Of a stretch of DNA of 11,559 nt, positions 1 through 11,559 are shown one piece after another. Within the stretch, counting starts at the first letter, position 1; the number at the start of each line of letters is the position of its first letter. Made by a program: the position numbers and the translations under genes. Where the stretch lies: the IMG/VR virus record IMGVR_UViG_2877958089_000001; one strand, written 5' to 3'. The DNA comes from a virus (lineage: Duplodnaviria; Heunggongvirae; Uroviricota; Caudoviricetes). A model generated the notes under the pieces. That model was not told the origin of the DNA and did no database searches. It saw nothing but the letters and a program-made list of their open reading frames with translations.

Positions 1-1164
1 TTACGCCTTCTTTATATCCTCCATAATTCCACAGTGGGACATATTTGGGACATTATCACCAAAAATGTCGTCTATTTTCCTTGCATGCTCTGTCAAATGA
101 TTAGGCGCAAGGTGAGCATACCTACGAACCATTTCTATGGACTCCCATCCGCCCATTTCCTGAAGCACAGATAATGGGACGCCTGACTGGATCAGCCAGC
201 TTGCCCAGGTGTGTCTGAGGTCATGGAAACGGAAATCTTCAATTCCTGCACGACGACAAGCTGATAGCCATGATGTCTTGCTGTCGATGCGCATCTTCCT
301 GACCGCAGGCGTTGATGTTCCATCTGCTCGCTTAGCCGCCTTGGTATGTACAAACACCCATTTGTGATGCTTGCCTATTTGATCACGCAACACTTTACAG
401 GCGGTATCGTTCAGCGCCACACCAATGGCGCGGTTTGATTTGCTCTCTTCTGGATTCACCCAGGCAACTCGTCGCTGCATGTCGATTTGTTGCCATTCCA
501 GATTTATGATGTTCGACTTTCTCAGACCAGTTGCCAGCGCAAACTTGACGACAGATTTCAGTGGTTCGGGGCACTCATCAATAAGGCGTTTTGCTTCCTC
601 CTTTTCCAGCCATCTGACTCGCTTGTTTCTGACCGCTGGTATCTTGATGACAGGCGCTTTTTCCAGCCACTTCCAGTCGCGTTCTGCAGCACGGAGAATG
701 GCCTTTATCATGGCAAGATGCTTTGCCTTTGTCTGAGTTGATACTGGCTTTGGTTCATAAACAGGCGGTTCTTTACCTTTCCTGATGGCGGCCTGAACTT
801 TCTGTTTCCATATTTCTTTCGTCTTTCTGTTATGCATTCTGCTTACAGCAGAGTAAATCTTTGCCTCCGAGATATCTTTAAGCCTTATACCCTCAAAATG
901 TTCAAGCCAGAACTCAATCCGGCTTTTATCTGAATCGAGAGATTTTTTATCAGCTTTTTCCTCAAGCCATCTTAGGCAGGCCTCTTCAAAAGTGACATCA
1001 GGTAAATCCCCTAGCTTTTCTACTCGCCAGAGTTCTGCTTTTCGCTTGTCGTGCAACTCCTGAGCTTGCCGCTTGTCCTTTGTGCCAAGAGATTCCTTAA
1101 TTCGTTTCCCGCCCGGGAGCGAATACGAGGCATACCATATTTCATTTCTGCGGAAGAGTGACAT
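1..1164 (-). CDS. intD: Phage integrase, tyrosine recombinase family (DLP12 IntD-like), 387 aa
   Basis: Full-length minus-strand ORF. C-terminal catalytic region with the tyrosine-recombinase signatures ([10 protein letters not shown] box and MVRRYAHL with the catalytic Tyr). ATG at 1164 is preceded on the coding strand by a GAGGAAAG Shine-Dalgarno. Sequence recognised from memory as the DLP12-type integrase. Confidence 0.93.
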
Positions 1165-1391
1165 TTTCTTTCCTCTGTTATGCCATCACCCGCGCTCACC
1201 TGGACAGTATGCAGCGGAGACTGAAGCGCCGCAATGCAAGCTTGCCGTGTTGTGAGGTAAGGAGATTTTGGCTTGGTTGGATCTTTACGTGTTGCCTGTA
1301 GGCGGCCTGTTCGTATCCAGTTGGTGGCGGTTGGTCTGGATATCTTAAGAAACTGACAGGCCTCATCGAGTGTGAGGCTGTATGGCTCCAT
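1020..1391 (-). CDS. xisD: Excisionase / AlpA-family helix-turn-helix protein (Xis-like); ORF is unusually long and overlaps int by about 145 nt
   Basis: ATG at 1391 preceded by GAGGTGA; its start overlaps the stop of the upstream ORF as TAATG. N-terminal segment [28 protein letters not shown] is a typical AlpA/Xis HTH. The ORF continues to 1020 in a different frame from int. Confidence 0.6.
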
Positions 1392-1696
1392 TATTTCACC
1401 TCTTGCTGTGTCATTGTTGAAAAATGGATACCAGCTCGTTGCTGCCAGACGATCCAACCGAGAGTCATATCCCATGCCATGTATTCGTTATCGCCGTTTT
1501 TTACTCTCCGACGATCTACTAAGTCACCGAAACGCTTTTCCATGAATAATTCATAGGCTTCGCGTTCATCTGGCTCTACTTCCAGAGATACGAGTGCGAT
1601 TTCATAAGCACGGCGCTCAATATCGTCTCGAACCTCTAGGCTGCTGATTCGTTCTTTGATTTCTTTAATCAGTTCTTTATTGGTAAATGTGGTCAT
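1391..1696 (-). CDS. Hypothetical small acidic protein (101 aa), early-left accessory region
   Basis: Minus-strand ORF whose start (rc ATG at 1694-1696) overlaps the stop of the upstream gene as TAATG and whose stop overlaps the xis start as TAATG. Glu/Asp-rich, predicted helical. No family recognised. Confidence 0.45.
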   Translation of the reverse strand: MTTFTNKELIKEIKERISSLEVRDDIERRAYEIALVSLEVEPDEREAYELFMEKRFGDLVDRRRVKNGDNEYMAWDMTLGWIVWQQRAGIHFSTMTQQEVK

Positions 1697-1815
1697 TATG
1701 CTCCAGCCTCCGGTGCTTTTGGCATTACTGCCCAGTGAGTGATATTGACGTTTTCAAGGTCCCCGACCTGAAATGTCCACTGCCATTCTCCGGTTTCTTT
1801 TTGTCCCCAGGTGTA
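1696..1815 (-). CDS. 3' end (about 39 codons) of an unidentified minus-strand gene whose body lies in the N-run
   Basis: Open minus-strand frame ending ...YTWGQKETGEWQWTFQVGDLENVNITHWAVMPKAPEAGA with stop at 1696-1698, coupled by TAATG to the next ORF. Upstream part is masked by Ns. Confidence 0.3.
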   Translation of the reverse strand, partial: YTWGQKETGEWQWTFQVGDLENVNITHWAVMPKAPEAGA

Positions 1816-1915
1816 NNNNNNNNNNNNNNNNNNNNNNNNNNNNNNNNNNNNNNNNNNNNNNNNNNNNNNNNNNNNNNNNNNNNNNNNNNNNNNNNNNNNN
1901 NNNNNNNNNNNNNNN
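1816..1915. other. Run of 100 N (assembly gap or masked segment of unknown true length)
   Basis: Directly visible in the sequence. Confidence 0.99.
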
Positions 1916-2109
1916 GGGTGCCTCCCGGTGCCTGGCGAAGGTTGCACACCAGGCGGGTGGGTATCCACAGAAGGTCGACTGTCAGCCTCAACCTTAACCC
2001 GCGTGCGCTGAGCCGCATTCACCACAACGCTAAGGATTCTCTCTGGTTGAAAATACTTAGCTGTTATGTGCCTGCTTTTAGCCACATCAGGCGAGGTGGA
2101 CCTGGTTAT

Positions 2110-2155
2110 TCCCCAACAACAAGGATTCGGTTAATCTGGATATCCCCAACAACAA
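2110..2155 (+). repeat. Two exact 13-bp direct repeats TCCCCAACAACAA (2110-2122 and 2143-2155), 33 bp centre to centre
   Basis: Read directly from the sequence; sits 15-60 bp upstream of the GTG start of the coiled-coil/zinc-ribbon ORF. Confidence 0.8.
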
Positions 2156-2169
2156 TAAGAGTATTCAAT

Positions 2170-2685
2170 GTGATCGCTGAATTAACGGCAGCAATGACGG
2201 CTATTCGTGAAACAGCCCAGATTGCAAAACTAATGAACGAGGCAAAAACTCAAGCTGAAGTAAATGCGGCTATTGGTGAGCTGAACTCAAAGCTTGCGTC
2301 TATTCAGCGCGAATGCGTGTCTCTCGTTGAACTGGTGGGCTCTTATCAAGAAATAAATGCTTCTCTCAAAGCTAAAATTGCAGAATTCGAAAACTTTGAG
2401 GCTCAGACGGAAGGCTATATCCTTAACCAACTTGAGTCGGGTACTTTTGTATACTCGAAGGAGGTAATCGTGAACGGTGGCAGCATAACCATGCATCTTT
2501 GCCCAAAATGTTTTGGACAAAAGATAGTATCGATACTTCAACCATTCCCGGTTAGCGAAGATGAGCTTTTTCATAAAAGCAGGTGCCTCCACTGTGAAAA
2601 TAAGTTTCTGATGAATAAAAATCCGGATTACGTATCGCCTCCATCCATTGAGGAGTTGTCCAGAAAACTTAACGGCAATCTGTAG
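2170..2685 (+). CDS. Hypothetical protein, N-terminal coiled coil plus C-terminal CxxC...CxxC zinc ribbon (about 171 aa from GTG 2170; alternative ATG at 2194)
   Basis: Long open frame with AGAG purine tract upstream of GTG 2170. Heptad-like helical N-terminus (AELTAAMTAIRETAQIAKLMNEAKTQAEVNAAIGELNSKLASIQ...), then CPKC, about 24 residues, CLHC. GC content is visibly lower than the flanking phage genes. The frame is also open upstream into the N-run, so the true start is uncertain. Confidence 0.55.
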   Translation: MIAELTAAMTAIRETAQIAKLMNEAKTQAEVNAAIGELNSKLASIQRECVSLVELVGSYQEINASLKAKIAEFENFEAQTEGYILNQLESGTFVYSKEVIVNGGSITMHLCPKCFGQKIVSILQPFPVSEDELFHKSRCLHCENKFLMNKNPDYVSPPSIEELSRKLNGNL

Positions 2686-2810
2686 ATTACTACTGTTGTG
2701 GATACCGTGGCATTTGAAGAGAAGTATGGCTCCCAGCTGGAGCTGATATTTCGTTTTATCGATCGCGCACTGGCGATTGGTGTGCTGGCCTGATTTTGTG
2801 GAGAAAGTTA

Positions 2811-3194
2811 ATGCGTGATATTCAGATGGTTCTTGAACGTTGGGGAGCGTGGGCGGCTAATAATCATGAAGATGTGACCTGGTCGTCCATTGCCGCCGGT
2901 TTTAAGGGATTAATTCCTTCAAAAGTAAAATCTCGCCCGCAATGTTGTGACGATGACGCGATGATCATTTGCGGGTGCATGGCCCGTCTGAAAAAGAACA
3001 ACAGCGATTTGCACGATTTATTAGTAGATTATTATGTAGTCGGTATGACATTCATGTCACTGGCAGGTAAGCATTGCTGCTCTGATGGTTATATCGGGAA
3101 AAGGTTACAGAAGGCTGAGGGCATAATTGAAGGGATGTTAATGGCATTAGATATCCGGTTAGAGATGGATATCGTTGTTAATAACTCTAATTAA
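2811..3194 (+). CDS. quuD: Late-gene antiterminator Q (short Q of the phage 82 / DLP12 QuuD type), 127 aa
   Basis: ATG 2811 preceded by GGAGAAAG. Cys-rich segments ([24 protein letters not shown]) typical of zinc-binding Q proteins. Position immediately upstream of terminator hairpins and the lysis cassette. Recognised from memory as the DLP12 Q-like protein. Confidence 0.8.
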
Positions 3195-3227
3195 TATGCC
3201 AATTGTTTACTGAAAGTTATTAAAAAT

Positions 3228-3245
3228 GGGGCGTTGCAACGCCCC
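3228..3245 (-). terminator. GC-rich perfect palindrome GGGGCGTTGCAACGCCCC followed by a T-run on the minus strand; probable intrinsic terminator of the porin gene
   Basis: Palindrome read from the sequence; on the minus strand it is followed by ATTTTTAAT. Lies about 140 nt downstream of the porin stop codon in the minus-strand direction. Confidence 0.5.
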
Positions 3246-3333
3246 CAAAAATAAAGGGTAATATATAACAGAAGGTTTATATAGTTAGAAGCAAGGTTGT
3301 GCTCCTAAAGGAAGTGGCTTGAGGGAGCCACTT

Positions 3334-5292: not shown

Positions 5293-5392
5293 NNNNNNNN
5301 NNNNNNNNNNNNNNNNNNNNNNNNNNNNNNNNNNNNNNNNNNNNNNNNNNNNNNNNNNNNNNNNNNNNNNNNNNNNNNNNNNNNNNNNNNNN
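5293..5392. other. Run of 100 N; must stand for at least about 0.6 kb (most of the endolysin plus the 5' part of Rz)
   Basis: Holin and Rz C-terminus flank the gap; an endolysin (about 165 aa) and about 64 codons of Rz cannot fit in 100 nt. Confidence 0.95.
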
Positions 5393-8472: not shown

Positions 8473-10931
<2,459 letters not shown>

Positions 10932-11025: not shown

Positions 11026-11559
11026 CTGGCCGGAACTAATGAATTTATTGGTGAAGGTGATGCATATATTCCGCCTCATACAGGTCTGCCAGCAAACAGT
11101 ACCGATATTGCACCACCAGATATTCCTGCTGGCTTTGTGGCTGTTTTCAACAGTGATGAGGCATCGTGGCATCTCGTTGAAGATCATCGGGGTAAAACGG
11201 TTTATGACGTGGCTTCCGGCGACGCGTTATTTATTTCTGAACTCGGCTCATTACCGGAAAATGTCACCTGGTTATCCCCGGAAGGGGAGTTTCAGAAGTG
11301 GAACGGCACAGCTTGGGTGAAGGATACGGAAGCAGAAAAACTGTTCCGGATCCGTGAGGCGGAAGAAACAAAAAACAGCCTGATGCAGGTAGCCAGTGAG
11401 CATATAGCGCCGCTTCAGGATGCTGTGGATCTGGAGATCGCAACGGAGGAAGAAACCTTGTTGCTGGAAGCCTGGAAAAAGTATCGGGTGTTGCTGAACC
11501 GTGTTGATACATCAACTGCACCTGATATTGAGTGGCCTACGAACCCTGTCAGGGAGTAA
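11026..11559 (+). pseudogene. tfaD: Tail fibre assembly protein (Tfa) lacking its own N-terminus and start codon; C-terminus complete (stop at 11557-11559)
   Basis: Frame-1 translation [50 protein letters not shown] ... [21 protein letters not shown] matches lambdoid Tfa; no ATG/GTG/TTG in frame between the upstream stop (10942) and GTG 11137. Confidence 0.75.

Follow-up and report, generated by a model that had tools for sequence, protein, structure and literature searches.

Which genes lie directly upstream of xis and int in this prophage, how are they organized, and what might they do? The question arises from a window of 11,559 nucleotides (IMG/VR record IMGVR_UViG_2877958089_000001), the whole stretch of DNA analyzed here, whose minus strand carries int (1..1164), xis (1391 down to 1020), a 101-aa open reading frame (ORF, 1391..1696) and, beyond it, an ORF that ends at 1696-1698 on one side and enters a run of N on the other. 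An earlier note, made from the sequence alone, had placed both of these ORFs where they are found, linked them to xis and int in a chain of TAATG junctions, and recognized neither. Both turn out to be named genes of Escherichia coli K-12, yfdT and yfdS, by comparison with K-12, by their RefSeq names and by their counterparts orf28 and orf29 in phage SfV. The comparisons reported here establish the identity of the genes, their operon organization and overlaps, and the mosaic architecture of YfdT; the earlier observation holds for the most part, but one of its junctions does not exist. The features are collected in Table 1.

Table 1. Features of the region upstream of int in the window.
Feature	Coordinates	Strand	Description
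int	1..1164	-	intD-type tyrosine integrase, 387 aa, intact; PF00589, E = 5.5e-47; annotated intD beside tRNA-Arg in S88 and AMSCJX02
xis	1020..1391	-	P22-type excisionase, 123 aa; HTH_17 (PF12728), E = 1.2e-8; best start ATG 1391-1389
TAATG, yfdT/xis	1389-1393	-	yfdT stop overlapping xis start; same in 80 of 86 related loci
Shine-Dalgarno of xis	1404-1396	-	AAGAGGTGA; junction sequence AAGAGGTGAAATAATG
yfdT	1391..1696	-	complete, 101 aa; 98/101 aa identical to K-12 YfdT (b2363); phrog_660, E = 1e-30
YfdT core	1427..1573	-	residues 42-90; PDER.AYE.F..RFG..VDRRR.KNGD.EYMAWDM..GW..WQ.RA; predicted helix, beta-hairpin, helix
YfdT N-terminal module	1574..1696	-	residues 1-41, MTTFTNKELIKEIKERISSLEVRDDIERRAYEIALVSLEVE; two predicted helices, 6-19 and 25-39
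TAATG, yfdS/yfdT	1694-1698	-	yfdS stop overlapping yfdT start; same in 82 of 86 related loci
yfdS 3' end	1696..1815	-	39 codons and stop, cut by the N run; phrog_583, E = 2e-21
Shine-Dalgarno of yfdT	1701..1711	-	GGAGG/GGAG, within the end of yfdS; junction sequence CCGGAGGCTGGAGCATAATG
N run	1816-1915	.	100 N standing for 2366 bp: rest of yfdS, yfdR, yfdQ, yfdP and part of a frameshifted ORF

Prophage Context and Gene Order

The flanks of the N run are 100% identical to the complete genome AMSCJX02 (NZ_CP031105.1), in which window position 1815 corresponds to 3664451 and position 1916 to 3666818, so that the 100 N correspond to 2366 bp there. This interval begins with the remaining 243 nt of yfdS, which bears out the earlier suggestion that the upstream gene is hidden in the gap, the gap content being read from this closest complete genome. 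A second N run occupies positions 5293-5392 of the window. Beyond the interval, AMSCJX02 carries a hypothetical protein, a DUF968 remnant and then quuD, and its annotation shows that the cI/pL region of the prophage is deleted; most morphogenesis genes of the prophage are gone as well. Since no cI, cro, O or P follows the gap, the window is from a deleted, defective E. coli lambdoid prophage of the DLP12-like kind, located at the argU tRNA site and adjoining tRNA-Arg.

In all complete relatives the order is int-xis-yfdT-yfdS-yfdR-yfdQ-yfdP, continued by cI in the functional phages; by the annotation of these relatives, yfdR encodes an HD-domain 5'-deoxynucleotidase and yfdQ a DUF2303 protein. 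The shared order indicates that the region lies at the distal end of the leftward early operon, in which yfdT and yfdS are the two most distal accessory genes (yfdP-yfdQ-yfdR-yfdS-yfdT-xis-int), in agreement with their earlier assignment to the non-essential accessory genes of the early-left niche upstream of xis-int in a lambdoid prophage. The module is of the SfV or CPS-53 (KplE1) type, carried here on a deleted DLP12-like prophage. Its expression in this prophage is uncertain, as the cI/pL region is deleted and a scan of 5.4 kb found no sigma-70-like promoter on the coding strand; that scan, which returned fewer sites in total than the shuffled expectation, is uninformative and not a negative proof. 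Rfam and tRNA scans of the window detected nothing in or near the region.

The int and xis calls of the earlier note stand, int by its PF00589 match and xis by HTH_17 together with the excisionase family phrog_2907 (E = 1.1e-45, profile positions 2-117 of 117). The xis product is 75% identical to P22 Xis over 122 aa, and this identity, along with the end-to-end phrog_2907 match, indicates that its length of 123 aa is genuine. The TIGR01764 score of 27.7 bits lies slightly below the cut-off of 28.8. A longer start at 1475, used in the annotation of SfV and of K-12 ypdJ, was rejected: it has no Shine-Dalgarno sequence and falls within the yfdT coding sequence, and the helix-turn-helix begins at the 1391 ATG. 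RefSeq labels this xis a pseudogene fragment.

Identity and Conservation of yfdT and yfdS

The predicted YfdT differs from the MG1655 protein at 3 of its 101 residues, is 100% identical to WP_000206813.1 (RefSeq "protein YfdT", present in S88 and AMSCJX02) and to YfdT of phage PhiR49_1, and shares 95% identity with SfV orf28. In relatives the gene is flanked by yfdS on its upstream side and by an excisionase frame downstream. What the window shows of the neighboring upstream ORF, 39 residues, agrees at every position with the C-terminus of K-12 YfdS (b2362, 120 aa), of S88 YfdS and of SfV orf29, and covers profile positions 82-120 of 120 in phrog_583. Full-length YfdS of the closest complete genome reaches 22.1 bits against the DUF551 model (PF04448; cut-off 22), while the 39-aa fragment of the window has no Pfam match.

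The module is widespread. A megablast search with window positions 1100-1815 against 5426 complete E. coli genomes gave matches in 3182 of them, 1125 covering at least 80% of the query, and many matches were 100% identical and annotated as yfdT, YfdS family phage-associated protein, helix-turn-helix protein and intD. Scans of genome contigs and viral contigs yielded 5 and 80 loci, respectively. Of the 86 fetched loci, 48 show the order YfdP-Q-R-S-T-Xis-Int and a further 23 show YfdR-S-T-Xis-Int. Because every one of the viral-contig loci is 98-100% identical, these loci display a kept arrangement and do not constitute independent evidence for it.

Several observations nevertheless mark yfdT, as judged by coding pattern, as a real gene. 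Its ORF is whole at 101 codons in nearly all of the 86 loci; the comparison with SfV gives 8 synonymous and 5 non-synonymous codon changes, with 10 of 14 substitutions at third positions; and residues of the core domain described below are conserved. A remnant of exo, bet or another recombination or replication gene was considered and set aside, as no such match was found in Pfam, PHROGs or NCBIfam or among 669 homologues, and the 101-aa ORF is thus a genuine independent gene.

Gene Junctions and Translational Coupling

At each of the two TAATG junctions, the upstream ORF ends with the TAA and the following one begins with the ATG. The earlier note had extended this chain over at least four genes; the yfdS/yfdT and yfdT/xis junctions hold, but the xis/int junction does not. 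There, the xis stop lies at 1020-1022 and the int ATG at 1164, giving a 145-nt overlap in a different frame, and the int start reads GAAAATG. Since the xis frame ends 145 nt past the int ATG, the TAATG chain comprises three genes (yfdS, yfdT and xis), not four. The xis gene overlaps int in P22 records too. Enrichment of the pentamer was tried as a signal and discarded, for TAATG occurs in the window at the chance rate (27 found against 26.9 expected); the motif is meaningful only by its placement at two consecutive ORF boundaries. Its recurrence in about 80 of the 86 loci is not independent evidence, because the loci are nearly identical in sequence.

The packing of the genes runs from an ATGA-type junction at yfdR/yfdS, through TAATG at yfdS/yfdT and yfdT/xis, to the 145-nt overlap of xis and int. 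Such stop/start overlaps are ordinary phage gene packing, which allows translational coupling without requiring or proving it. A published plasmid experiment bears on the matter: a yfdS frameshift made by BstBI fill-in still gave suppression, which was lost only when yfdT was also removed (PMC4776307). A single BstBI site lies at yfdS codons 6-7, and if the fill-in added 2 nt, translation would, by our computation, stop 21 codons in, some 300 nt short of the start of yfdT. The yfdT-dependence of suppression by the frameshift plasmid implies that yfdT is translatable without coupling, from its own ribosome binding site, and coupling would then at most modulate stoichiometry. Together with the separate Shine-Dalgarno sequences of yfdT and xis, the published plasmid and the frameshift computation speak indirectly against a strict dependence of downstream on upstream translation.

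Mosaic Architecture of YfdT

Comparison of homologues showed YfdT to have the build of a two-module mosaic, described here for the first time, in which a swappable N-terminal helical module precedes a core of 49 residues. Many other early-left prophage proteins share the N-terminal module: a match confined to residues 1-42 links YfdT to proteins of 125-162 aa whose C-termini are unrelated to its own, among them 933W L0065, an HK022 ORF and EaA/DUF551 proteins of Stx phages, and the families phrog_5117, phrog_60 and phrog_3323 match YfdT within residues 1-50 only. Conversely, the core was found behind at least five different N-terminal sequences. A profile of the core searched against a library of 1.84 billion proteins recovered 229 representative clusters at E ≤ 1e-3, in proteins of 46-448 aa with the core at any position. 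Seventeen core columns are invariant among 19 closer homologues (D43, E44, R45, E49, F51, F56, D61, R63, N67, G68, D69 and E71-D76), and three residues, E49, Y72 and W84, never vary among the 119 divergent core-bearing proteins. A scan of these 119 found no Pfam model over the core; the domains beside it were DUF551 in 17 proteins, Ead_Ea22 in three and dATP/dGTP pyrophosphohydrolase in two.

The repeated presence of the core and DUF551 in one polypeptide suggests that they act in the same process, and would help to explain why the two genes proved redundant in the published work. Fusion of the neighboring genes as the origin of such proteins was rejected. All 14 proteins in which motif patterns detect both domains have the core ahead of DUF551, whereas yfdS comes before yfdT in the operon. 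In addition, P0031 (173 aa), the fusion examined, is encoded downstream of replication genes in a nin-like region. A core homologue from Entomohabitans likewise lies upstream of ORFs read as ninB-, ninG- and Q-like. The occurrence of the core in nin-like regions indicates a free-moving module of accessory proteins in temperate phages of enterobacteria, tied neither to xis-int nor to yfdQ and yfdR, and its presence away from the latter two genes argues against a dedicated partner of YfdR.

Searches with YfdT itself were largely silent. Pfam, NCBIfam and PADLOC gave nothing useful (at most a 13-bit chance match to CdsZ, and none in Pfam at E ≤ 1), PHROGs returned only families annotated as of unknown function, and a sequence search of the PDB found no relative. 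The structure model is moderately confident (pLDDT 71, pTM 0.40), with no significant match to folds of known function and nothing named in BFVD. The earlier description of the 101-aa protein as acidic and helical is accurate in a mild form: it is predicted to be mostly helical, with a pI of 4.96 and 21 acidic (D+E) against 16 basic (K+R) residues, for a net charge of -5.

Proposed Role and Alternative Explanations

One functional study of the K-12 orthologues points to the most likely role of the region. In multicopy, yfdQ and yfdR together with either yfdS or yfdT inhibit DnaA-dependent initiation at oriC; extra gene copies also inhibit initiation in wild-type, dnaAcos and seqA cells, and YfdQRST extracts inhibit oriC replication in vitro (PMC4776307). 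The DnaA binder is YfdR only, through domain I and Phe46, in moderate competition with DiaA and DnaB, and YfdS, YfdT and YfdQ were absent from pull-downs with DnaA or YfdR (PMC4776307). K-12 cells deleted for yfdQRST showed no phenotype in replication or under hydroxyurea, and the authors allow that the inhibition could be an artefact of overexpression, or else a remnant of the takeover of the host by the ancestral phage (PMC4776307). By analogy with this single experiment, YfdT would most likely assist YfdQ and the DnaA-binding HD-domain protein YfdR as an auxiliary factor, a part that the DUF551 protein YfdS could equally take. Under strong operon expression, for example after prophage induction, YfdQ and YfdR with auxiliary YfdT may damp DnaA-dependent initiation at oriC. 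To the explanation as a whole, in which yfdT and the tail of yfdS are distal operon genes, YfdT is a mosaic and its role is an auxiliary one in damping initiation, we assign a probability of roughly 0.6.

Other functions of the two genes would be served by some of the same observations. The earlier note had seen here a slot for host-takeover or anti-defense functions, with the 101-aa protein as a candidate DNA mimic, and a product that blocks restriction enzymes or other host immunity would suit a small protein of acidic pI, encoded in an accessory hotspot between the recombination/early genes and xis-int and built in the mosaic, quickly shuffled manner of phage counter-defense and moron genes. 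Yet a dense acidic surface is expected of Ocr/ArdA-type DNA mimics, and the net charge of YfdT is just -5 over 101 residues, 16 of them basic; neither sequence nor fold searches matched it to a known mimic. Profile searches and structure prediction brought out no anti-defense likeness, be it in PADLOC, Pfam, NCBIfam, the sequences of the PDB or the fold searches, and the sole experimental phenotype concerns replication initiation (PMC4776307), so that the idea of a mimic has no support and an anti-defense role appears very improbable, whereas host takeover retains one published basis in DnaA-dependent initiation. A role for YfdT, with YfdS, in the lysis-lysogeny decision or in excision, as an Ea22-like modulator or a helper of the co-translated Xis and Int, has the following in its favor: the stop/start overlap of yfdT and xis recurs in about 80 related loci, the N-terminal module is common to proteins of Stx and P22-like phages annotated as EaA, EaE or Ea22, an Ead_Ea22 domain accompanies the core in 3 of 119 proteins, and Ea22, variants of which carry DUF551, is reported to be pro-lysogenic (PMC10834534). 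The same paper, on the Ea22 structure, puts DUF551 and YfdS among the same mosaics as Ea22 (PMC10834534). However, the core also resides in nin-like regions distant from xis-int, and YfdT itself has no Ead_Ea22 (PF13935) match, which leaves this role unlikely.

The two genes may also be inert passengers of a defective prophage, kept by recent descent or recombination and not by selection. The prophage has lost cI, cro, O, P and most morphogenesis genes, the coding strand offers no promoter-like site, the K-12 deletion has no phenotype in normal growth (PMC4776307), and the window is 100% identical to many other genomes, which leaves little divergence time in which to judge constraint. Against this, the ORF has stayed whole in nearly all loci, the substitutions relative to SfV favor third positions, residues of the core stay unchanged even between very divergent proteins, and a yfdS deletion is sensitive to H2O2, as papers citing Wang 2010 relate it. 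For this locus the passenger state is plausible, if on balance doubtful, and it leaves the domain-wide conservation unexplained. A bolder extension of the auxiliary role of YfdT would make the YfdT core, which has no Pfam, NCBIfam or PDB relative, and DUF551 interchangeable host-targeting modules that temperate enterobacterial phages set on varied N-terminal handles to tune DnaA/DiaA/DnaB-dependent initiation of host replication during induction. We regard this extension as speculative and improbable; if it were true, the target of the core would account for many "ea/nin" mosaic proteins together.

Significance

As catalogued, named K-12 genes that are present in most E. coli genomes and have been the subject of one functional study, yfdT and yfdS are of small value as a discovery. 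The practical gain lies in annotation, by which the two unrecognized ORFs become YfdT and YfdS, the N run hides yfdR, yfdQ and yfdP, and xis becomes a P22-type gene overlapping int. A modest novelty is the recognition of an exchangeable N-terminal module and of a conserved core, covered by no family model, that recurs in fusions with DUF551; this division of YfdT provides a handle for the study of mosaic proteins of the ea and nin regions. The question of what the core and DUF551 target is itself modest, and the window adds no special leverage on it.

Comparison with Known Systems

The proposed damping of initiation resembles that of lambda P, acting on DnaA, and of Bacillus subtilis SirA, acting on DnaA domain I, a likeness drawn in the published study (PMC4776307). 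The Yfd system differs in that its DnaA binder is YfdR, while the contribution of YfdT comes from genetics only, where YfdS can replace it; sequence and fold searches linked YfdT to neither P nor SirA. In genomic position, yfdT occupies the same niche as lambda Ea22 and P22 Ead-EaA-EaE, between the recombination genes and xis, and its product is built alike, with a short helical N-terminus ahead of exchangeable C-terminal domains of acidic character. The YfdT core is fused to Ead_Ea22 or DUF551 in other phages, although YfdT itself matches neither, and the tetrameric coiled coil and pro-lysogenic activity belong to the Ea22 side of this comparison.

Close parallels are found in SfV, and also in SfII and SfIV, and in the inducible E. 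coli phages PhiR49_1, PhiR29 and Kati, which carry the same gene pair within an early-left operon of the same order, orf32-orf28-xis-int. These phages are complete and functional, with cI/cro and pL, the region that the prophage of the window has lost. The cryptic CPS-53 (KplE1) prophage of K-12 has 98 of 101 aa of YfdT and the C-terminal 39 aa of YfdS in common with the window, together with the succession yfdR-yfdS-yfdT, an excisionase frame and both TAATG junctions. In K-12, however, only the ypdJ remnant is left of the P22-type xis, followed by torI, and intS lies at the other end of the prophage, whereas in the window an intact P22-type xis, and intD at the argU site, adjoin the module.

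The xis gene and its annotation

The leftward early operon (yfdP-yfdQ-yfdR-yfdS-yfdT-xis-int) carries an excisionase gene of the P22 type that is poorly represented in existing records. In the complete genome S88 and in AMSCJX02 (NZ_CP031105.1), the closest complete genome, RefSeq/PGAP gives only a 63-66-nt pseudogene, "HTH domain-containing protein, incomplete", and in the record of phage PhiR49_1 xis is left without annotation. Across these three, xis appears to have been missed systematically in annotation.

The position of the xis start can be read in two ways. The annotated xis of phage SfV begins at the ATG equivalent to window position 1475, and in K-12 a xis remnant from that same ATG is annotated as ypdJ. 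Upstream of ATG 1475, no Shine-Dalgarno sequence was found, which favours 1391 as the more likely start.

Coordinates of the features in the window
Feature	Position (nt)	Strand	Remarks
intD	1-1164		complete, 387 aa
xis, P22-type	1020-1391	-	123 aa; 75% identical to P22 Xis; 145-nt overlap with int
Alternative xis ATG	1475 (region 1392-1475)	-	in frame; adds 28 codons over the yfdT 3' end
N run 1	1816-1915		2366 bp in AMSCJX02: rest of yfdS, yfdR, yfdQ, yfdP
ORF of 171 aa	2170-2685	+	GTG start; WP_000559922.1, "hypothetical protein"
N run 2	5293-5392		flanked by essD holin ORF (end 5285) and rzpD C-terminal part
Lambda-type portal gene, truncated	10572-10931	+	Phage_portal_2 positions 2-75 only
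Tail-fibre assembly gene	11137-11559	+	Caudo_TAP
Rfam IS009 (RF02111) match	11318-11516	+	221.6 bits, full model

Masked regions and operon organization

Both N runs are exactly 100 N long. The second separates the essD holin from the C-terminal part of rzpD, and therefore hides rrrD and the rzpD start. The first masks the interval from the yfdQ stop to the yfdR start, which in L005, the locus taken from AMSCJX02, spans 2822-2950, with a 127-nt spacer upstream of yfdR. Directly 3' of yfdQ, this interval holds a GC-rich hairpin, GCCCCTGCGGGGGC, and after it a short tract that contains T residues. The hairpin may act as a terminator or attenuator dividing the operon into yfdPQ and yfdRST-xis-int; it was absent from the output of the terminator scan. 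YfdR-YfdS-YfdT-Xis-Int occurs without YfdQ or YfdP within 6 kb upstream in 23 of the 86 related loci (IMG/VR, L012-L091), and the yfdRST block thus also moves with another upstream gene set.

The AMSCJX02 intD (L005 238-1401) has an internal stop in its annotation, the surrounding sequence being otherwise 100% identical to the window.

Deleted regions

The 171-aa ORF occupies the exact site of the lost immunity and replication genes. Its N-terminal half is a predicted coiled-coil, it carries two CxxC pairs (CPKC...CLHC), and Pfam returned no real match. The entire 1916-3300 stretch was found in only 11 complete genomes.

At the right end, the IS009 match lies within the tail-fibre assembly gene. 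This gene follows about 200 nt after a portal gene cut after 119 codons, which implies that a large deletion removed head and tail genes, a loss comparable to that of DLP12.
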